A stretch of DNA of 64,000 bases, from IMG/VR virus record IMGVR_UViG_3300047160_023228; one strand, given 5' to 3'. Below are positions 10,105-52,909 of this stretch, piece after piece. The DNA comes from an uncultured virus (IMG/VR IMGVR_UViG_3300047160_023228) (lineage: Duplodnaviria; Heunggongvirae; Uroviricota; Caudoviricetes). Each line of letters begins with the position of its first letter. Within the stretch, counting starts at the first letter, position 1. Below the pieces are notes generated by a model. That model did no database searches. It worked only from the letters and a program-made list of their open reading frames with translations, and had not been told where the DNA came from. The translations under genes were made by a program, and so were the position numbers.

Positions 10105-10162
10105 TGGCGGACGAGGCGGGAATCGAACCCACAACCCCCGGCTTAGAAGGCCGGTGCTCTAT
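10105..10162 (-). pseudogene. displaced 3' part of host tRNA-Arg(UCU) at the left attachment site
   Basis: Minus strand ATAGAGCACCGGC-CTTCTAA-GCCGG-GGGTT-GTGGG-TTCGATT-CCCGC-CTCGTCC-GCCA; no tRNA 5' end upstream. Confidence 0.9.
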
Positions 10163-10297
10163 GAAGTTTCAGCCGGTGCTCTGAACACTTGCTGATTTCT
10201 TTCGAGCTTGGAGCGTCTGGCAACGCTTCTGTGTGGTTGTGTTTCCCGAACCGGGGCTGCAACCCCGATTCGTGTCCTATAGTGAAACACTCCGCCT
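10163..10297 (-). ncRNA. putative structured RNA of the left phage arm (5' part of an att-spanning tRNA-like/antisense RNA)
   Basis: Hairpins GUGUUU/GGACAC, GAAUCGGGG/CCCCGGUUC, AGCGU/ACGCU; 5' AGGCGGAG complementary to CUCCGCCU-ACCA in the right arm; boxes antisense to 52771-52795. Confidence 0.5.
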
Positions 10298-10387
10298 CCG
10301 CGCGTATGTGACGGGGAGCACAAAGTAACGTGACGCGCGGATTACTAGAGTCCTACGAAAATTGCAAGCGGAATCACGCCCCAATTG

Positions 10388-10573
10388 TTACTCTTCTGGT
10401 TCCTTCCCGCGGGGTGTGCGGTGGCTCACCAACTTGGAGTCACAAGTATAGCGGATGCAATAACGGATTGCGTTGGTCAGATCAAAGCCCTCCTGTTCCG
10501 CTAACTTCTGTAAATCCTTATACATTGCTGGAGCCAGGCCCAGGTTGATCCGTTTGCGTGTCATTGTCGCCAT
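10388..10573 (-). CDS. ribbon-helix-helix (CopG/Arc-like) DNA-binding protein
   Basis: RKRINLGLAPAMYKDLQKLAEQEGFDLTNAIRYCIR: alternating beta-strand plus two helices; divergent from the integrase. Confidence 0.7.
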   Translation of the reverse strand: MATMTRKRINLGLAPAMYKDLQKLAEQEGFDLTNAIRYCIRYTCDSKLVSHRTPRGKEPEE

Positions 10574-10686
10574 CGTACGGCCATCCCCAGGCACCGTGCG
10601 GTGTCGGCAATAACACCGCGATGACACAAAAGTGTGCATCGCATTGTGCCCCACATCACTTTCAACCCCATTGGTAATGAGGAAAG

Positions 10687-11859
10687 ATGATGGCCGATTC
10701 GAAAACACAAACTAGGGCCACGGCTACGGGCGGAAAGCTTTCACACACGCCCGACCATCAGGATTGCCCTGCCTGTAAGGCGGCAGATTTGCTCTTGGTT
10801 CAGATTGATTCTGATTTTTCCCGGCGTCTGTTCAGGGAAGCCGCGGAACTCTGGATGACGATTCGCCGGCGCGATAACAGCTTGAAAGCCCGCACCCACG
10901 AAACCAACACACAGTACATCGAGGCCCTGGGCCGATTCTTTGGTAACATGCGCCTCAATGACATCTCCCCCGGCCACCTCAAGATGTACCAGGACGCGCG
11001 GGCGAACAATCTCCTGATCGTTGCCGAAAAGGAAACCCACCCGTGGAAGCGCGCGGCCGGGCATTCGATCATCAACCACGAAATCTCCACCCTGGCGCAG
11101 ATCCTGAAGCACTGTAAGCTGTGGGATCGGCTTCGCCCGCTCTACTTCCCGCTCACCACCCCGAAGTGGAGTCCGCGCGAAGAAAAGATTTTGAGCGAAG
11201 AGGATGAACAGGATTTGTTTGAGAAAGCGGCCAAACATCCCGAATGCGCGCTTGCCTATTGGGTTGCGTGCATCACCAACAACACTTCCGCGGCGGGGTG
11301 CGAGTTGCGCGGGCTTCGCCTGAAACACATTCATCTTCGGCCCGGCAATGATATCTCCGAAATCTACGTGCCCTCGGACGCGGTGAAGAACGATGCCCGG
11401 CCGCGCAAGATCGCGTTGAACCGCACCGCGAAGTGGGCTGTGGAGCAATGCTATGGGCGCGCCCTCAAGTTGGGATCGTGCCAGCCCGATCATTACCTGT
11501 TCCCGTTGCGCCTCAACCGGGAGAAAACCACGGACGGCGCCAAGCACCGGGACAAGTACGATCCGACGCGGCCGGCTTCGCGGTGGTTCATCCGTAAGAG
11601 TTGGGAGAAGCTTCGCAAGGTGACGGGCTTTACGGAATTAAACCCGCACGATCTGCGCCATCAATGCATCACCCGTCTCTTGGAAAACGGCGTGGAACCG
11701 GAGACGGTTCGCTCCATCGCCGGGCACGTCACCCAACAGATGATGGAGTATTACTCCCACCTTCGCCGGCGGGTGAAGTACGAAGCGGTGATGGCGATTG
11801 AACTGGATGAGCAGCGGCGCCGCAAGCAAGGCCCGCAAGCGGTGCGCCGGTACGCCTAA
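10687..11859 (+). CDS. tyrosine recombinase/integrase homolog with atypical box I
   Basis: HDLRH, SIAGH, MMEYY; box I reads TSAAGCEL (no Arg); next to att. Confidence 0.85.
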   Translation: MMADSKTQTRATATGGKLSHTPDHQDCPACKAADLLLVQIDSDFSRRLFREAAELWMTIRRRDNSLKARTHETNTQYIEALGRFFGNMRLNDISPGHLKMYQDARANNLLIVAEKETHPWKRAAGHSIINHEISTLAQILKHCKLWDRLRPLYFPLTTPKWSPREEKILSEEDEQDLFEKAAKHPECALAYWVACITNNTSAAGCELRGLRLKHIHLRPGNDISEIYVPSDAVKNDARPRKIALNRTAKWAVEQCYGRALKLGSCQPDHYLFPLRLNREKTTDGAKHRDKYDPTRPASRWFIRKSWEKLRKVTGFTELNPHDLRHQCITRLLENGVEPETVRSIAGHVTQQMMEYYSHLRRRVKYEAVMAIELDEQRRRKQGPQAVRRYA

Positions 11860-24550: not shown

Positions 24551-25069
24551 ATGCGCACGGCGGTTGCCCTGTTTGTCTTTGCTCTTGCCTCGGTTGCCTT
24601 CGCGGATGATGACTATCAAAAAACCGCTACTTACAATTGCGGGTTTGGACACGAAGAAACCCATGTGCTCATGCATCGGGATTCTCTGAAGGAACCATGG
24701 CAATTCGAGAATGAAAATGCGGCCAATTGGGTGACTCAGAATTGCAAGCCCGCAGATCGGGTCAAAAGGGTAACTCCCAAAAGCCATCAGGCTATCGAGA
24801 CTCCGCCCGCGTTCGCCCAATCAACACCACCCGTCACGCCGGCGGTGAATACTTCCCCCGATCCGGGAGTGCCGTACTTCGGCCTCGCGCTCGTGGTTCT
24901 CACGTTGTTGATCTACTTCATCCCCACGCTGGTATCGGGGGCGCGCGGGTGTAAGGCGCACGGCGGGATCGTGGTGGTCAACATCTTCCTGGGATGGACG
25001 TTCATCGGGTGGGTGGTGGCGTTGGCCTGGGCCGCAAGCGGAGAGCCGCGGCCCAAGGTTACAGCTTAG
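24551..25069 (+). CDS. superinfection immunity membrane protein (T4 Imm-like C-terminal domain)
   Basis: IYFIPTLV…I.VVNIFLGWTFIGWVVALAWA; signal peptide; AGGAG RBS; TGcTAAACT extended -10 upstream. Confidence 0.85.
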   Translation: MRTAVALFVFALASVAFADDDYQKTATYNCGFGHEETHVLMHRDSLKEPWQFENENAANWVTQNCKPADRVKRVTPKSHQAIETPPAFAQSTPPVTPAVNTSPDPGVPYFGLALVVLTLLIYFIPTLVSGARGCKAHGGIVVVNIFLGWTFIGWVVALAWAASGEPRPKVTA

Positions 25070-39716: not shown

Positions 39717-40904
39717 TCACTTCGCCAATCCGCGCAAAGAATCCACGTGCTCAGCCCACCGGGCAAGCATGTCCCGCCGTTGTTCGGCGTATTCAGCGCG
39801 GTTGTAGATGCCCTTCACACCCGGCGGCTTATGGTTCAAACACTTCTCAATCCACTTCTCTTCGAATCCCATCTCACTCAACCTTGTGGTTGCTGTACGT
39901 CGCAGATCATGCACAGTGAAATGGGGCAGCCGTACGGCCACCCGCGCAAGTTGTTTATTCAGTGTGCTTTTGGAGATGGATGCCCATGTTCCGCCTGGCG
40001 CCGGCAACACACAGCCTTGCGGCGCATCGCCCTTCATCAGCGAACGAAACAGCCGAACCGCGCGGGTGGATAGATAGACGATCTGGCCTTGCCCCATCTT
40101 GTCATGGGCCTCGGGGATCGCCCATTCGCCACGGCTGAAATCGATCTCCGTCCATTCGGCCAGGCGCAACGCGCTCTTTCGCACCAACGTCAAAAGAATC
40201 AGTTCCAACGCCGCTTTGTACCGGGCTTCGATGGGCGCCCGATCCAACGCGCGCAGAAACACGCCGATTTCGGCCTCGTTCAAAGCACGATCCCGTTTCA
40301 CGCGCTCCGCAATGTACTTGGGAGATATCTCACGGGCCGGGTTAGCTTCCATCACCCCGCACACAATCGCGTAATCGCACAGCCGCTTGAGGATGTCCCG
40401 GATTGCAAGGGCCGAAGATCGCTTGCCTTCGTCGCGCCGTTCGAAGACGATTTCCCGCACGTGATCGGTGTTGATCGAACTCATGGGAAGGTGGCCGATG
40501 CGCGGCAACACGTCGCGTTCAAGATAGCGGCGCACATCGTTCGGAGCCAATCTATCTTTGGCAACCACTTCGCGTAAGTAACGCTCCGCAAAGTCTTTAA
40601 GCGTAGCGCGTTTCAGCTTCCCCAACTTCGCCTGGCGCTTGAGATCGTCCGGAGAGATGCCCTTCTTGATCGATGCGGCAAGCTCATCTCTTTTCTTTCG
40701 GGCTTTTTCGAGCGTGACGGTGGGATATCGCCCCAGGTTGATCTTTCCCGGCTTGCCGTGCAGCCGATAGCGAAACCGCCAACTCTTCACGCCGCTTGGT
40801 TGGATTTCCATGCCCAAACCGCGGCCATCGGTGACGGTGTAACGCCGATCTTTGGGCGCGAGTTCGTCAATGTCCGCAACTTTCAGGGATTTTCTTGTTC
40901 CCAT
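39717..40904 (-). CDS. P4-family tyrosine integrase
   Basis: Arm-binding DGRGL…SGVKSW…LGRYP; R (LVRKS), HDLRR, CLNH, Y all present. Confidence 0.93.
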   Translation of the reverse strand: MGTRKSLKVADIDELAPKDRRYTVTDGRGLGMEIQPSGVKSWRFRYRLHGKPGKINLGRYPTVTLEKARKKRDELAASIKKGISPDDLKRQAKLGKLKRATLKDFAERYLREVVAKDRLAPNDVRRYLERDVLPRIGHLPMSSINTDHVREIVFERRDEGKRSSALAIRDILKRLCDYAIVCGVMEANPAREISPKYIAERVKRDRALNEAEIGVFLRALDRAPIEARYKAALELILLTLVRKSALRLAEWTEIDFSRGEWAIPEAHDKMGQGQIVYLSTRAVRLFRSLMKGDAPQGCVLPAPGGTWASISKSTLNKQLARVAVRLPHFTVHDLRRTATTRLSEMGFEEKWIEKCLNHKPPGVKGIYNRAEYAEQRRDMLARWAEHVDSLRGLAK

Positions 40905-41018
40905 GTACCCAAAGTGCGCACCCAACGCGAAAACGGGCAACTAATTCCCTTAGAAATCAAAGCTGGAATACTTAATGAGCTAGAAAATCCCCGATTCCCG
41001 CAAGTAAACTGAATCCGT

Positions 41019-41096
41019 GGCCCCGTAGCTCAGCCCGGATAGAGCATCTGCCTTCTAAGCAGAGGGTCGTTGGTTCGAGTCCAACCGGGGTCACCA
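41019..41096 (+). tRNA. tRNA-Arg(UCU), phage-borne, intact
   Basis: GGCCCCG/CGGGGTC acceptor, GCTC/GAGC D stem, TCTGC-CTTCTAA-GCAGA, GTTGG-TTCGAGT-CCAAC, ACCA. Confidence 0.95.
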
Positions 41097-41150: not shown

Positions 41151-42353
41151 TCAGGCTTCTTCGAGCGCGTTGACTAAGAGCGGTTGGATCGTGCCATCAC
41201 GGTTGATCCTGTCCAACATGGCATCGCCGGCGGCTTCAGTCCCATCCCATCCCCGCGGCCAGGTATTGGCCGCAATGAGTTCCCGGATGCGCGCCTCTTC
41301 CTCAGAGTTGATTAGATCGATTGTTGGCCTACTCAACCGCCGGGCGGCTTCGTTGATTTCAGCCTGAATGCCAAGCACTGTTTTGAGGCCGCACAACCGG
41401 GCTTCCATAGTCAAGGGTCCAACCCGCTGTGGATTCGCCGCCGGGGTTCCATCCTTTCGCAATTCGATCTCCGTCTTACGTAAGCGGTTCGCATGGTCAA
41501 ACGAAAGATCGTGGTACAGCGGTTTCAACCGGGTAAGCGGAGTGAGATACGACCATTGAGTATCACGAATCACGGCCTGTAACGCGGTGTCCCGACTAGC
41601 AAGCGGACAACCGATGCACCCGGTTCGCGCGTTCAATTCCTCGGCCTGGGCGCCGCCATAAGCAACAGCAATCGGAATGGTCGGGAAGCCGAGATCCGGA
41701 GCGTGAGCCGTGAGCCATGCCCAAACATGGCACACCCGCCAATGAAGCAAGGGAGCAAGTGTGTCCGCAACCGCTTCCGGCGTAGCTTCCTGAAACCATC
41801 CCTGACCACATTCGGCGCCGTCACGGCTGCAACTCAAGATGATCCGTGCATCCCGTTGCGCGGACTCGCCGATCCGAACGCCCGTGATCATCAGAAGTTT
41901 TTCGCCGGCCCGGGCGCGCAGAGTTTCCAATGCGTGAACCATCGGCTCAATCTTGATCTGGGCCGTACACCACCGAAACCTGTTTTTGGGCGGTGGAACG
42001 CCGCGGCCAAGCATGTAGACAAAGAACCGCTCATCGATCTCCGGAAGCACAACCCGCGTGTCTATGCCGCGTTCTCTCAACTCCGCCATTACCTTTGTGG
42101 CCGCCACTTGAAGCGGTGGTATCTCCATTCGCGTATCGGCATAGAGCACCGTCAGGCTTTCCGGCGATGGTATCTGTTCCGTTTCGATCAGGTGAGCCAC
42201 GATGGTCACGGTTGCGCTGGAATCCTTGCCGCCCGAATATGCAATAGCCCAATGCCGGTGTGTCTGTGCGTAAGTTAAAAGCGATTGCTTTGTGAGTTCA
42301 ATCGCTTCTTTCAGTGTGGTTCGGGCGCCCTCAAACAGAGTGGGAGCAATCAT
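41151..42353 (-). CDS. DndC-like PAPS reductase-family protein
   Basis: YSGGKDS, ADTRME, LGRGVPPP..RFRWCT..IKIEP, GVRIGES..R, RTGCIGC. Confidence 0.82.
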   Translation of the reverse strand: MIAPTLFEGARTTLKEAIELTKQSLLTYAQTHRHWAIAYSGGKDSSATVTIVAHLIETEQIPSPESLTVLYADTRMEIPPLQVAATKVMAELRERGIDTRVVLPEIDERFFVYMLGRGVPPPKNRFRWCTAQIKIEPMVHALETLRARAGEKLLMITGVRIGESAQRDARIILSCSRDGAECGQGWFQEATPEAVADTLAPLLHWRVCHVWAWLTAHAPDLGFPTIPIAVAYGGAQAEELNARTGCIGCPLASRDTALQAVIRDTQWSYLTPLTRLKPLYHDLSFDHANRLRKTEIELRKDGTPAANPQRVGPLTMEARLCGLKTVLGIQAEINEAARRLSRPTIDLINSEEEARIRELIAANTWPRGWDGTEAAGDAMLDRINRDGTIQPLLVNALEEA

Positions 42354-43966
42354 CCGATCACCGCCTCAACCAACGCTTTCGCGGTGTGAGTCGGAACGGC
42401 GTTGCCAATCTGTTTCACGATGTCATCCCGCTTGCCGGTGAAACGATAGTGATCCGGGAAGCCCTGGGCGCGGGCAAGCTCACGCGGCTGCAACATCCGA
42501 AAGCGGATATCGAGCCGGTAACGCTTCACTTCGGGCTGAATCAGGGCGAACCGTTCTTTAGTGGTGACAGTTGGAACAGGATCGGCGGCGCCGCTCAAGT
42601 TCTCTGTGCCGTAGTAACAGATCAGGAACGGTTCGCAGATCCCCACTCCAATCTTCGAAGTTGCGGTGGGCATCGGTTCATCAACAGACTGTGCGGCGCG
42701 CGGCGTCTCACCTTCGCCGTGGTTCACCGTGACCATGTACGGCTGAATCAGGGCGGTATGGTTCTCTGTGACCACGGTGGCCAGAGGATCACCGACGCTT
42801 CGCGGTTCGCGTCCTTTGCCTTCCGGGCCGCCAGCTTGCATAAGAAATGGTTCAACGAGGGATAGATCACAACTTGTAGCTGTCACCGTCCGAACGGGCT
42901 TATCGATGCTTTGTGGCTGATCATTCTTCCGCGGATGTGGGAGTAAGAACGGTTGCACGATCCCGGTGTTGGCCTTCGTTACCACCGTGGGAATCGGCTC
43001 ATCGATCCCGCGGTTCTTCCCGCTGTCCGATCCCTGCTGATCCCATTGCACGAGATACGGCTCAACCAACCCGTAGTGATTCCCGCCGGCGGTGACGGTG
43101 TGTAACGGCTCATCCACCGCCTGGGTGGTCCCGGTTCCGCGCATCACTACGAGAAACGGGCGAAGATTCTCCGCCACACACCGCCCGAGATCGATATCCA
43201 AACCGCAAAACCGCTTCAACCCTGCCTGAATCCGTGAGAGCGTCTTTTTCGCTAAAGGCCGCTTGCGATCAAAGATGCTTTGCGAATCCATCTTCCAATC
43301 GATGATTTCGCGGGCGGTGCGCCACGGTTGCCTCTGATCCGGGATTAGTTCATTGCGCAACCGCGTGTGTGTCGGCTTCGGCCAGTGAATCTGTTTGCCG
43401 CCGCGGCGGGCGATGATGAACAGGCGCCGCCGGGTGGTAGGATCGCCGTAATCCGCACACGTGAGAATGCGCCATTCCACGCGATAGCCCAAAGCTTTCA
43501 GGGATGAGACGAACTGCAGGAACAGTTCGCCGCGCTTGGATTTCAACGGGCGGCCGTTCGCTCCCAACGGCCCCCACGAAGTGAATTCCGGCACATTTTC
43601 GAGGATGATGTTATCGATGTACAGGGCTTCGGCGAACCGCAAAACGTGCCAGGCCGAAGAGCGCGATTGATCGGACATCGGCTTTCCGCCGCGCGCAACG
43701 GAATGATGAGTGCATTCCGGCGAGGCGCACATCACGTCCAACCGGCCGCCGGGAATCAGCTTTCGCGGGTCCACGTTATCGATTCCGGTACAAGCGTGTT
43801 GCGCGTAAGGATGGTTGATGCTGTGGGTATCGATTGCAACCTGCCAATGGTTCACGGCCACAAGACTGAGATCAGCCCCGATCTCGTTGGCCGCCATAAG
43901 TAAGCCCTGCGATGTTCCGCCTGCTCCGCAAAAAAGGTCTGCTGCCTTGATCTCTTTCTTTTTCAC
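42350..43966 (-). CDS. DNA (cytosine-5) methyltransferase with repeat-expanded variable region
   Basis: DLFCGAGG, SPECT, ENVPEF, R.R, QIGNAV; repeated S.D.P..TVT units. Confidence 0.92.
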   Translation of the reverse strand: MKKKEIKAADLFCGAGGTSQGLLMAANEIGADLSLVAVNHWQVAIDTHSINHPYAQHACTGIDNVDPRKLIPGGRLDVMCASPECTHHSVARGGKPMSDQSRSSAWHVLRFAEALYIDNIILENVPEFTSWGPLGANGRPLKSKRGELFLQFVSSLKALGYRVEWRILTCADYGDPTTRRRLFIIARRGGKQIHWPKPTHTRLRNELIPDQRQPWRTAREIIDWKMDSQSIFDRKRPLAKKTLSRIQAGLKRFCGLDIDLGRCVAENLRPFLVVMRGTGTTQAVDEPLHTVTAGGNHYGLVEPYLVQWDQQGSDSGKNRGIDEPIPTVVTKANTGIVQPFLLPHPRKNDQPQSIDKPVRTVTATSCDLSLVEPFLMQAGGPEGKGREPRSVGDPLATVVTENHTALIQPYMVTVNHGEGETPRAAQSVDEPMPTATSKIGVGICEPFLICYYGTENLSGAADPVPTVTTKERFALIQPEVKRYRLDIRFRMLQPRELARAQGFPDHYRFTGKRDDIVKQIGNAVPTHTAKALVEAVIG

Positions 43967-44913
43967 TTTCCGTCCTTCGGGAACATCTTCCATTGGCTGT
44001 TATCGAGAAACGATCCGGCGTCTTTCTTGCCCACCTTGTACACCGCCGCGGCACCGTCATTCCCATCAAGCTGGTAGGTGTACAACCCGAACTCCGGATC
44101 AGGGCGATCCCGGCCGGCAACGGCGTGAAACGTTCCGTCATACGAAACCAGGCTGTGCGCGCTGCAACGGTGGAACTCCTGATCCACGCGCATCTGACGC
44201 GCCGGGAACCATTCGCCCCATTGCTTGAAAAAGAACGGGACGCCGGCCACCTGGCATTCGACGCGTACATCGCGCGCCCAATCGGGATGCATCGGCCTGG
44301 CCGCCGATCCGCTCTCCCCGCCACATATCACCCAATCCACGTGCTCGAATGCGCGGCTCAACACCAGGTCAAGCGGTCCCAGGGCGGGTTCGTAGCTCAC
44401 GAAGAACATGGGAACCGAAGGATGCCGGGCGCGAAGCCGTGCCACGTGCGCCAGGCGTTCTTCCAACCGCGTCTGATCTTCGGCGGTGAATCCCGGCTTG
44501 ACGTTCGCGGGCCAGCTCCGCAACCACCGATCCGGCATGAACGCTTCGTAGTTGTGCGCGCGCTTGGTCAGGATCAGGAATTGGAGGTTGCTGCAAACAT
44601 CGGCCTCAAGGTAGAAACGTTGACGCTGATCCCGCGGGCCATCGTCATCAAGAAAATCGGCCAGGGACGCGACGAACACACGGCGCATCACGCCGGCTGC
44701 TTTGGACGCGCGGTCCCACTTGCGAAGCTGATTCCAGTTGGCAAGCGAAGTGATCTTGCGCGGCGCACCCGGCCCCCACCCGCCGCCGGTCCAGTTGTAG
44801 AGCTTGTTTTGGGTTTCGGCGTAGCAATTCTTACAGCCCGGCGAAACCTTGGTGCATCCGATCCACGGATTGAAGGTGTGATCCGTCCACTCGATTTTGG
44901 AATTCTCTCCCAT
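43963..44913 (-). CDS. Gp37/Gp68 (DUF5131) family protein
   Basis: SKIEWTDHTFNPWIGCTKVSPGCKNCYA, LTKR, WVICGGESG, FFKQWGEW. Confidence 0.92.
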   Translation of the reverse strand: MGENSKIEWTDHTFNPWIGCTKVSPGCKNCYAETQNKLYNWTGGGWGPGAPRKITSLANWNQLRKWDRASKAAGVMRRVFVASLADFLDDDGPRDQRQRFYLEADVCSNLQFLILTKRAHNYEAFMPDRWLRSWPANVKPGFTAEDQTRLEERLAHVARLRARHPSVPMFFVSYEPALGPLDLVLSRAFEHVDWVICGGESGSAARPMHPDWARDVRVECQVAGVPFFFKQWGEWFPARQMRVDQEFHRCSAHSLVSYDGTFHAVAGRDRPDPEFGLYTYQLDGNDGAAAVYKVGKKDAGSFLDNSQWKMFPKDGK

Positions 44914-48292: not shown

Positions 48293-49456
48293 TTACTTCT
48301 CCAGCCGCATCGGCATCACAACGTAGTCGAGATGATCCCCTTCGGCGGGATCGGCGGAGAACATCAGCGCGCTTTGGTTGGTATCCGGCAAGCAAATGCG
48401 GACATCGCCGGATAGGAGCTTGAACAGGTCCAACAGGTATTCGCCGTTGACGCCAACCGAGAACGGCTGTTTGGGTGTACCTTGGCAATCCACCGTCTCG
48501 CGGGCTTCGCCGCTCTGTGCGTCCGATCCTTCGAGGGTGATCTCTTTATCGAACGTGAGTTTGACGCTGCAGGAACGTTCATCGCTGAGCAATAGGCAAC
48601 GTTCCAGGCTTGAGCGGAGTTCGCCGGCCTTCGCCGTGATCACCGTATTGTTCTTCGGCACAACCGCTTCCCAATTGGGAAATGGCCCGGCAAGTTTCTT
48701 GTGCGCCACGTGAACCGGAGTCTCACCCGGCAACGCGGCGATGATCTGTTGATCGTCGAAGGTGACATCCACGCCGCCATCGGAGAGCATCGGCAACAGG
48801 GCCTTGACCATGCCGGCTGGGATCAGGAGGTTCTTGAGCTTGTCTTCACAGGAGATCGAATAGATCATCATCGTGTGCCCGTTGGTGGCCACGAACTTCA
48901 GGTGCGATCCATCTCCCACGGCCAGAATGCCGTTGAGCGTGTAGCGGCTGGCTTCCTTGCTCACGGCGATCTGTGCGAAGCGAAGCGCGCGGGCAACACC
49001 CTCCTGGTCAAGCGTGATGGCGCCGCCATTGGCTTCGAACGAAATCTGCGGCCATGAACCAACACCCATGATCGGAAGCACGGCGCGGGCACGGGCGCAT
49101 TGCAGCGTTGCCCGGCGATCCGTGAGGCTGAGCTTCACTTCATCGCCCGTGAGAAGCTTCGTCCAATCGAGCAGTTTTTCCGCGGGGATCACCACAGGCT
49201 TATCGATGGTGGTGGATTCGGGAACCGCGGCGCGGATGGCCAGGTCAAGGTTGGTGGCTTCGAGGATCAGGCCCGCCGGCGTCTGTTCCACCTTGACGCA
49301 GGTCAGAATCGGGATGGTGGTTTTGCGCTCGATGGCCGCCGAAACAGTCTTGAGCGCGTGTTTCAAATTGGAGAGAGATACGGTGGCCTTCGAGGGCGCG
49401 GATTCCGGCTTGTCAACCGTTGCGGCCTCGGGCTTGTCTGTTACCGCTGTTGCCAT
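48293..49456 (-). CDS. dnaN: DNA polymerase III beta sliding clamp homolog
   Basis: KTTIPILT, ATNLD, SRYTLNG, ATNGH, FPNW..V.P, YVVMPMR. Confidence 0.9.
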   Translation of the reverse strand: MATAVTDKPEAATVDKPESAPSKATVSLSNLKHALKTVSAAIERKTTIPILTCVKVEQTPAGLILEATNLDLAIRAAVPESTTIDKPVVIPAEKLLDWTKLLTGDEVKLSLTDRRATLQCARARAVLPIMGVGSWPQISFEANGGAITLDQEGVARALRFAQIAVSKEASRYTLNGILAVGDGSHLKFVATNGHTMMIYSISCEDKLKNLLIPAGMVKALLPMLSDGGVDVTFDDQQIIAALPGETPVHVAHKKLAGPFPNWEAVVPKNNTVITAKAGELRSSLERCLLLSDERSCSVKLTFDKEITLEGSDAQSGEARETVDCQGTPKQPFSVGVNGEYLLDLFKLLSGDVRICLPDTNQSALMFSADPAEGDHLDYVVMPMRLEK

Positions 49457-52056: not shown

Positions 52057-52382
52057 GCCGCGGCCTCTTCCTTGATGGCGCGATAGGACCACAGGCCGCT
52101 GGCGGGAGCGGTGCGCTGGCGTTCGATTTTCCATCCGCCGCGGCGCATGTCCCGAAGGCGGGCGGAGATCGACGTTTCCGATGCGCGAAGGCTGTACTGC
52201 TTCACCAGGTCCCTGGCGATCTTGGGAAGGGTGCGCCACTGTCCATCGCTCATCAGGTGGGCAACGCACGCGCGCTGTCCGGAGAGGCGGGCGCCGTCCT
52301 GTTCGGGCGAGAACGATTCGCCGAAGATGGCGGGCTGTTGGGCGGCCGGCGGGGCGATGTCAAAAAGGGCGAGGCTGTTCAT
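52053..52382 (-). CDS. winged-HTH protein
   Basis: DGQWRTL..I…SETSISARLRDMR. Confidence 0.75.
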   Translation of the reverse strand: MNSLALFDIAPPAAQQPAIFGESFSPEQDGARLSGQRACVAHLMSDGQWRTLPKIARDLVKQYSLRASETSISARLRDMRRGGWKIERQRTAPASGLWSYRAIKEEAAA

Positions 52383-52756
52383 CCGCGCACCGCCTTGGTG
52401 AACGTTTCCAGACTCATGCCCTCGTGAAACGGATGAGCGTTTAATGCACTATTCAGTTGGGAGGCTTTGTGGAGAAGCTTGCGGGCATTGCCGCGGCGCA
52501 CGGTATCGGTGGCCTTGCGCCACTTGCCGATGAAGATACCGGCGTCGGCGTGCTCGAAATCAGCCTGGAAGAGATAAAGCCGGGTTGCTCCGCAATCGAG
52601 GCAGGTCTGGCGGTTGTTGAACGGAAGGCTGAGATGGGAATGCCGGCACGGAAAAAAGAAATCGGCCAGGCGCGTCAGCACCGTTTGGAGGGCAGATCTG
52701 TACCCCGTTCGGGTTACTTCTGCCGGTGCTCTAAGAGTGAGGGCGGGGCTTTGCAC
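52379..52756 (-). CDS. first early-operon gene, Zn-binding hypothetical protein
   Basis: AAGGAG RBS; CRH…CLDCG. Confidence 0.65.
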   Translation of the reverse strand: MQSPALTLRAPAEVTRTGYRSALQTVLTRLADFFFPCRHSHLSLPFNNRQTCLDCGATRLYLFQADFEHADAGIFIGKWRKATDTVRRGNARKLLHKASQLNSALNAHPFHEGMSLETFTKAVRG

Positions 52757-52796
52757 TTGACAATCTCCTTGAAAAATCAGAAGATTGCCAAACGCG

Positions 52797-52873
52797 TGGT
52801 AGGCGGAGCCGGTGTGAATCCGGCAACCCCCGGCTTAGAAGGCCGGTGCTCTATCCGATTGAGCTACTCGCCC
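52797..52873 (-). tRNA. chimeric tRNA-Arg(UCU): host 5' part plus non-canonical phage 3' end, probably impaired
   Basis: GGGCGAG-TA-GCTC…GAGC-A-CCGGC-CTTCTAA-GCCGG-GGGTT-GCCGG-ATTCACA-CCGGC-TCCGCCT-ACCA; T loop not TTCRA; acceptor has an A.C mismatch and two G.U. Confidence 0.7.
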
Positions 52874-52909
52874 GCGTTCTTCCATTGTACTTTGAGTTCC
52901 GTAGCGAAC

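Follow-up and report, generated by a model that had tools for sequence, protein, structure and literature searches.

A prophage in the DNA analysed here probably carries a translational switch whose two parts are separated by integration and rejoined by excision. The lock, at attL, is a hairpin that hides the ribosome binding site (RBS) of the first early gene. The candidate key, at attR, is a short sequence (box A) complementary to one strand of that hairpin. Excision would place both parts on one transcript, where our folding models predict that the key would act in cis to open the RBS. The predicted sign is opposite to that of C4/CI silencing. We put the probability of this reading at about 0.6. 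In what follows, the window is the whole stretch of 64,000 nucleotides that was analysed.

The prophage and its attachment site

The window contains a 42.7-kb prophage, between 10132-10162 and 52824-52854, that carries integrase, terminase, portal, capsid and tail genes. These two intervals are copies of a 31-bp direct repeat, the att core, which lies in the anticodon arm of a tRNA-Arg(TCT) gene. Relatives of the window integrase in named genomes are from Acidobacteria. The tRNA features are as follows.

10105..10131, minus strand: host 3′ remainder of tRNA-Arg(TCT) at attR; canonical pairing with the host 5′ half; Rfam tRNA fragment at 10116-10174
10132..10162, minus strand: attR copy of the att core, a 31-bp direct repeat spanning the anticodon arm
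41019..41096, plus strand: intact phage-borne tRNA-Arg(TCT); Rfam, 67.8 bits
52797..52873, minus strand: attL hybrid tRNA-Arg(TCT), made of the host 5′ half, the core (52824-52854) and the phage 3′ half; ARAGORN, and Rfam at 50.4 bits
52884..52889, minus strand: TACAAT, probable −10 element of the promoter of the host tRNA, from which lysogen transcripts would enter the early leader; identified by eye

A TAnAAT motif, also read by eye, occupies the same place in most host flanks of the right-arm set described below. Our σ70 scan did not flag the TACAAT at 52884-52889. The phage 3′ half of the attL hybrid is degenerate; its acceptor stem has an A.C mismatch and two G.U pairs, and its T loop lacks TTC. 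The intact phage-borne tRNA may complement the damaged hybrid, a possible case of tRNA-dependent lysogeny. A tRNA-Arg gene beside the second integrase was also seen in one relative (G407) but not in two others (G406 and G408).

In the circular form, the order on the minus strand is the gene for a ribbon-helix-helix (RHH) protein, the left arm with box A, the core, the tRNA 3′ half, the leader and the first early gene. Key and lock flank the att core, so excision would bring both onto one transcript; the distance between them shrinks from 42.5 kb in the lysogen to about 120 nt, along a single strand, once the phage has excised. Four loci (L045/L133, L053/L142, L056/L121 and L113) are natural joined attP sites with the same order of RHH gene, box A, core, hairpin strands B and C, and early gene. 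One of the four is in a record with terminal repeats. Among the listed contigs from four DNA runs, the attP junction of the window phage was absent, but contigs break at the core, which makes this absence uninformative. Related elements in the opposite orientation occupy the same tRNA-Arg in L152/L157, L155/L160, L154 and L105. The far ends of L157 and L160 each carry a tRNA 5′ half and, belonging to it, a promoter-like TACAAT.

The first early gene has its RBS and start codon within a hairpin

The lock consists of an anti-RBS strand (B), a loop and a strand (C) that contains the RBS and start codon.

52379..52756, minus strand: first early gene, 125 aa, with a CxH...CxxC motif; GTG start at 52756; Atlas matches are unnamed Acidobacteriota clusters
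52753..52795, minus strand: hairpin hiding the RBS and start; strand B (52795-52778), loop, and strand C with AAGGAG (52770-52765) and GTG (52756-52754); from folding and covariation

Pfam and PHROG searches with the early gene product gave no match. Its homologues sit behind right arms of type A. The hairpin has a predicted energy of −22.4 kcal/mol, with a z-score of −5.7 for the sense strand compared with −0.9 for the antisense strand.

Right arms were gathered using a pattern of core and downstream repeat, of which the hairpin was not a part. This gave 38 distinct rows. Three (L095, L101 and L119) were other tRNA loci without a phage arm and were dropped, and the remaining 35 were folded. 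The hairpin formed in 34 of the 35, at −13.7 to −23.9 kcal/mol, just after the tRNA CCA. A start codon follows the RBS in 31/35; the hairpin is still present in three of the four arms that lack one. The RBS core was at least three-quarters paired in 28/35, and the outer stems vary between arms yet cover the start region. None of the 35 arms has a U-tract, defined as at least 5 U in the 8 nt after the hairpin, and a terminator scan called no terminator at the leader hairpin.

For the alignment we used 29 arms, omitting five near duplicates (L111, L112, L114, L116 and L123) and the arm with no hairpin (L103). Here, 85.7% of cells were paired and 8 of 14 pairs showed two-sided changes. With an alignment blind to G.U pairs, G.U outnumbered A.C by 52 to 9; the sequences are related, and counted as distinct column and type events the ratio is 9 to 7. 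The sense strand was more stable than the antisense strand in 27/29 arms. The RNAalifold consensus energy was weak (−0.95). Taken together, the sequence comparisons give us high confidence that the B:C hairpin acts as RNA. On the plus strand, the 3′ strand of the hairpin (52747-52763) reads TTGACA in most type-A arms, a motif absent from type-B arms. This is a possible −35 element of an antisense promoter directed toward att.

Box A is complementary to the anti-RBS strand

The initial annotation pointed out that plus-strand segments 10213-10231 (box 1, here box A) and 10192-10203 (box 2) resemble minus-strand 52795-52771, which ends directly before the AAGGAG at 52770-52765. These coordinates are correct.

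10213..10231, minus strand: box A, complementary to anti-RBS strand B and the proposed opener, with a predicted local hairpin (10212-10227); from duplex energy and covariation
10192..10203, minus strand: box 2; complementarity equalled by 45/2000 shuffles

Box A and 52795-52778 form 16 Watson-Crick and 2 G.U pairs, interrupted by a 1-nt bulge. The duplex energy, −28.8 kcal/mol, was reached by 0/1000 dinucleotide shuffles of the left arm. Thus, the complementarity to the early leader that had been claimed for box A is borne out, and a local hairpin is predicted around it. The proposal that the loop of this hairpin kisses a UUGGCA target is not supported. The target is not a free loop, with a probability of being unpaired of at most 0.01 in the attL transcript, and UGCCA is evident in the loop only in the window and L133. 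Box 2 is marginal. It was weaker in the six other pairs (−0.8 to −4.0 kcal/mol, compared with −5.7 for the matching window segment). Its target also overlaps that of box A by 3 nt, and the order is wrong for one continuous helix. We regard box 2 as probably due to chance or specific to the window.

Elements for which both ends are available were used to ask how A and B vary together. For the first seven pairs, shuffles equalled or bettered the A:B duplex in 0, 1, 1, 0, 4, 14 and 0 of 1000 cases. For three more distant elements the values were 6, 75 and 0 of 1000, and each of these arms preferred its own target; the element with 75/1000 (G006) is not significant. A covaries with B in 10/10 both-end elements, nine of which beat shuffles at 14/1000 or better. 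Matched compensatory changes are found in L113, L065/L110 and G005, and the covariation spans elements whose integrases are 52-71% identical to that of the window. In a 7 × 7 matrix of arms and targets, the cognate arm was best for its own target in 4/7 columns.

Two elements, G006 and G005 (the ends of the latter come from two separate contigs), are inverted relative to the tRNA, so that the leader is not behind the host promoter. In the circle, a single strand still carries both, with box A upstream of B. Two further elements, L093 and L117, are in tandem on one contig, at one tRNA-Arg, and have different lock sequences. We had considered L093 as an attP with a poor A:B match. This was rejected, since it is a tandem junction and the true partner, L117, is on the same contig. 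The L093 left arm reaches −26.0 kcal/mol (0/1000 shuffles) with the leader of its own element, which lies at a distance of 41 kb. Conversely, its pairing with the adjacent foreign leader reaches −13.7 kcal/mol, a value matched by 706/1000 shuffles.

Oppositions in A:B are nearly all Watson-Crick (G.U 4, A.C 2), so the duplex gives no strand signal. The antisense duplex was as strong as A:B, or stronger, in L133, L113 and G003. Internal indels between A and B occur in 6/7 pairs. Left arms with no known partner (L002, L046, L048, L051, L052, L054 and L080) were not counted as pairs, and neither was L061/L068. One of these, L002, showed no complementarity to any of the seven targets tried. The second end was not found for G002 and G004, and the strict left-arm pattern was absent from the 401 family genomes searched. 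We conclude from these comparisons that the complementarity of box A is real, conserved and covarying, and that it probably acts as RNA. Upstream of box A there is an 11-bp hairpin (10244-10275) with no U-tract; a similarly placed hairpin occurs in several relatives.

Box A is predicted to open the RBS

Box A never covers the RBS. Its target is strand B, which hides the RBS. Without box A, the leader is already closed by its own hairpin, and opening the RBS costs 7.7-11.8 kcal/mol. A leader that is shut by its own hairpin, and a box that binds the anti-RBS strand, predict activation. The early-operon silencing that had been proposed for box A is therefore not supported.

Modelled in the attP form, the RBS took 0.7-6.2 kcal/mol to open, compared with 6.7-11.6 kcal/mol when the box was shuffled. 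At most 1 of 40 box shuffles (0-1) gave a cost as low, in all seven elements. The drop was also found in 3/3 further elements (0/30 shuffles), giving 10/10 in total. Folding of transcript prefixes showed A:B formed while the RBS emerges. For the window, the roughly 17 predicted pairs of A:B drop to 0.1 after the transcript passes the start codon. In full-length attP folds the RBS was mostly paired in 5/7 elements, the window included, with a mean probability of being unpaired of 0.01-0.20. In L093/L117 the freed RBS pairs again downstream. Since full-length folds keep the RBS mostly paired, the model would need a kinetic window or co-transcriptional loading of ribosomes. The σ70 scans found a promoter in neither att-flanking region; transcription across attP is presumed in the model.

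The proposed switch would work as follows. While the phage is integrated, transcripts that run on from the promoter of the host tRNA would contain B:C but not A, and the first early gene would not be translated; the operon would probably also be subject to Rho polarity. After circularisation, transcription coming from the RHH side would pass through attP and yield A, core, B and C in that order. Box A would take up B while C is still to be transcribed, and ribosomes would find the RBS free. Key and lock would be parted by integration and rejoined by excision. Repression and immunity would be the job of the Arc-like RHH protein and not of RNA. It is about an even bet that these Acidobacteria phages, in which no lambda-type CI was found, gate lytic entry with such a two-part RNA switch. 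Its halves would lie at opposite prophage ends, and site-specific recombination alone would write and erase the RBS-freeing structure. Key and lock would co-evolve, each key opening its own leader only, even where a foreign element adjoins it in the tRNA gene.

Integrases and core-type repeats

The sequence AGAGCACCGGC occurs exactly four times in the window, all at att. Two copies are additional to the core.

10172..10182, minus strand: additional core-type AGAGCACCGGC repeat, 22 bp away from the core copy; same offset in 7/7 left arms
52722..52732, minus strand: extra core-type repeat AGAGCACCGGC, within the first codons of the early gene; offset 100-101 in 7/7 pairs
10687..11859, plus strand: tyrosine integrase of the tRNA-Arg att; Pfam; conserved N-terminal HxxxHxxCxxC
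39717..40940, minus strand: second tyrosine integrase, mid-genome, with Arm-DNA-bind_3; Pfam; about 12 kb from the nearer att end

In the 35 right arms, which were selected for an offset of 90-106, the offset of this second repeat is 95-101. The copy at 10172-10182 is likely to be an accessory integrase site, which would act at the DNA level. The suggestion that box A and box 2 are themselves DNA arm sites suits these AGAGCACCGGC copies better, with their fixed distances from the core. Box A is 18, 20, 21, 21, 21, 35 or 37 nt from the fixed accessory site, out of step in 3/7 cases. Such variable spacing, like the internal indels by which A differs from B, is more in keeping with an RNA duplex than with a site for a protein.

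The att-linked integrase gave no match to a Pfam arm-binding domain. Across its family, the N-terminal His/Cys motif (10687-10790) is nearly invariant and stands in place of a known arm-binding domain; this possible zinc site could bind DNA. The family has extra core-type repeats on both arms.

A protein repressor candidate

Beside the integrase gene is a short gene with the features of a repressor.

10388..10564, minus strand: 58-aa Arc-like RHH gene, transcribed toward att; PHROG Arc-like repressor, E=0.005; RHH_5, E=0.013 (below the cut-off)
10307..10322, plus strand: TGTGA-N6-GCACA palindrome, a candidate operator on the downstream side of the RHH gene; repeated at 10645-10660, on the other side of the gene

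The Atlas places the product with RHH_1/Arc clusters (0.92-0.93), and the profile matches are weak. The RHH gene is divergent from the adjoining integrase gene in 23/35 loci with at least 450 bp upstream. A TACGAT at 10572-10577, a TAnnAT motif read by eye, is 7 nt before the ATG, and the gene is probably leaderless. The palindrome is at the same place in most of 11 aligned left arms, L045 being an exception; over the window as a whole, the pattern by itself shows no enrichment (15 occurrences, with 13.9 expected). An Acidobacterium LexA-box motif has six matches in the window, none of them near att.

The conservation of the RHH gene beside the integrase gene means that a protein repressor candidate exists. 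The initial annotation had RNA acting in place of a CI protein. We indeed found no lambda-type CI; in searches, Peptidase_S24 was absent from 5/5 records, and HTH_3 from the record closest to the window and from 3/4 relatives. The other half of the claim is not supported; the Arc-like protein would be the likelier repressor.

Alternative explanations

The same geometry could serve transcription instead of translation, with the hairpin acting as a terminator, a pause or a Rho/RNase signal and box A as a cis antiterminator. The hairpin directly follows the tRNA CCA, at the expected place of the displaced host terminator, and is kept in the three arms that lack a start codon. There is also a precedent in SL3 of ICEKp1, as described in the available part of PMC13023037. 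We nevertheless think this unlikely, since the 8 nt that follow the hairpin contain 5 or more U in 0/35 arms, three-quarters or more of the RBS is paired in 28/35, and the outer stems vary yet cover the start region. Somewhat less probable is that A, B and C are DNA sites around the core, such as integrase arm sites, sites for a directionality factor, IHF-like sites or repressor half-sites. They do flank the core as inverted repeats and A:B is almost all Watson-Crick; B also overlaps a match to the IHF consensus. Against this, the distance from box to accessory site varies over 18-37 nt where the AGAGCACCGGC sites are fixed, A and B differ by internal indels in 6/7 pairs, and B:C is strand-biased toward G.U. 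Moreover, the integrase linked to att lacks a Pfam arm-binding match, and the second integrase is about 12 kb away.

Box A could also act in trans. As an activating small RNA like IsrK, for which the available text of PMC4825925 gives the precedent, a 3′ transcript of attR and the RHH gene would open the leader of the integrated prophage and help induction. Box A lies within the probable 3′ UTR of the RHH gene, and dimer folds form A:B in 5/7 pairs, at −4.3 to −11.1 kcal/mol. With five relatives binding in this way, trans activation is a live, minor rival, to which we assign a slim chance. In the window, predicted binding is just −2.7 kcal/mol, which speaks against trans action as the main mode; in L065/L110 it is −1.8 kcal/mol, and B:C stays intact in both. 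Further, box A is always just upstream of the core and on the same strand as B, inverted elements included, an arrangement that trans action does not need. Very unlikely, in our view, is a C4/CI-like antisense RNA that silences the early operon in trans and confers immunity. The complementarity near the RBS is real, lambda-type CI was not found, and RNase III might be attracted by a duplex some 20 bp long, or a 30S standby region obstructed by it. However, box A leaves the RBS uncovered, the leader is closed without it and the target is not a free loop. There is no second exact target in the window (two-mismatch matches number 24, with 17.9 expected), an Rfam scan of the window at gathering thresholds gave three tRNA matches only, and an RHH repressor candidate is present. 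The least probable explanation is that the similarity was left behind when strand C was duplicated long ago, and serves no function today. Box A does resemble C in direct orientation, and G006 is not significant; covariation of A and B across elements with 52-71% identical integrases, and the tandem control L093, argue otherwise.

Comparison with known systems

The closest parallels to an RBS opener assembled by excision come from integrative elements. In ICEKp1, stem-loops in the int 5′-UTR damp read-through from the tRNA gene, and a 15-bp sequence from the other end relieves this after excision by a pairing proposed in silico (available part of PMC13023037). As there, the present element is in a tRNA gene, has a stem-loop when integrated, and has a short sequence at its other end that would give relief after excision. 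The accessible portion of PMC13023037 has as target the integrase of an enterobacterial ICE, with stem-loops read as a terminator. Here, by contrast, the target is a phage early gene, and the hairpin is over the RBS and start with no U-tract. The pairing is in silico only in that portion, whereas here there is covariation across 10 elements. Similarly, Tn916 has an insulator (T1) at one end and a cis RNA override (canT) at the other, joined only in the circle. In the available text of PMC11658703, canT antiterminates processively and is also effective on heterologous terminators; here, a sequence-specific pairing of 15-25 nt is predicted to act on translation. Excision-dependent read-through is described for Tn916 and ICEclc in the part of PMC5812530 available.

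Like these systems, the present one has a predicted inhibitory structure inside an att end, downstream of a putative host promoter (34/35), and a co-oriented candidate reliever that is upstream only in the circle (10/10, with four natural attP). The insulator did not show the marks of a transcription terminator, with no U-tract in 35/35 arms and no terminator call; Rho-dependent termination may still occur. Since it covers the RBS without terminator features, we do not count the element as a strict member of the ICEKp1/Tn916 group. Relief by joined ends at att has an experimental precedent in ICEKp1. A literature search, incomplete in coverage, found no paper dealing with the present phage family, or with pairing across a phage attP that opens an RBS.

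In lambda sib retroregulation, an RNA element lies across att and its linkage is set by integration state. The sib element is downstream of int and negative, whereas box A is upstream and predicted to be positive. The element is mentioned in the portion of PMC6379469 available. In mycobacteriophage BPs, too, the integration state of att gates an element of the lysis-lysogeny decision. There, attP is inside the repressor open reading frame and acts via protein stability, and the available part of PMC4557955 describes no RNA pairing. P4 CI, P1-P7 C4 and Gifsy-1 IsrK resemble box A in that a phage RNA pairs with an early leader, and IsrK opens an RBS helix. Conversely, CI and C4 are trans repressors; CI is a processed RNA that has two targets in its own operon and causes termination, and in the available text of PMC4825925 and PMC8198154 none of these RNAs is split by att. 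Box A shows none of three C4/CI characteristics, namely an Rfam match, two accessible targets and, in our models, a repressing sign. As in tRNA-dependent lysogeny (available part of PMC10865867), integration may damage the host tRNA, and the phage carries the same isotype. Here, however, a degenerate 3′ half is still supplied and most relatives rebuild an intact tRNA, and we regard this as a side feature and not as the switch.

Many elements in tRNA genes land behind a strong host promoter. How they are silent there, yet expressed as circles, is only partly understood, and the family of the window prophage offers a compact answer at the level of translation. Pairing between ends, in silico only in the available text on ICEKp1 (PMC13023037), becomes directly testable with the natural compensatory variants, the inverted integrations and the tandem control. 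If the model is correct, the physical state of the phage DNA would gate gene expression. An RNA example would also be added to integration-dependent control of lysis and lysogeny, in phages of an abundant and little-studied soil phylum. The arrangement suggests a recombination-gated expression part for synthetic biology.

Other features of the prophage

The second integrase gene sits between the small terminase and methylase genes. It has homologues in 3/5 relatives, with a stop inside the match in two. A superinfection-immunity family protein (PF14373) is encoded at 24551-25069 on the plus strand, opposite to the tail genes. Genes for PAPS-reductase-domain, C5 methylase and DUF5131 proteins are in a row at 41151-44913, and a phage-borne beta sliding clamp is encoded at 48293-49456.
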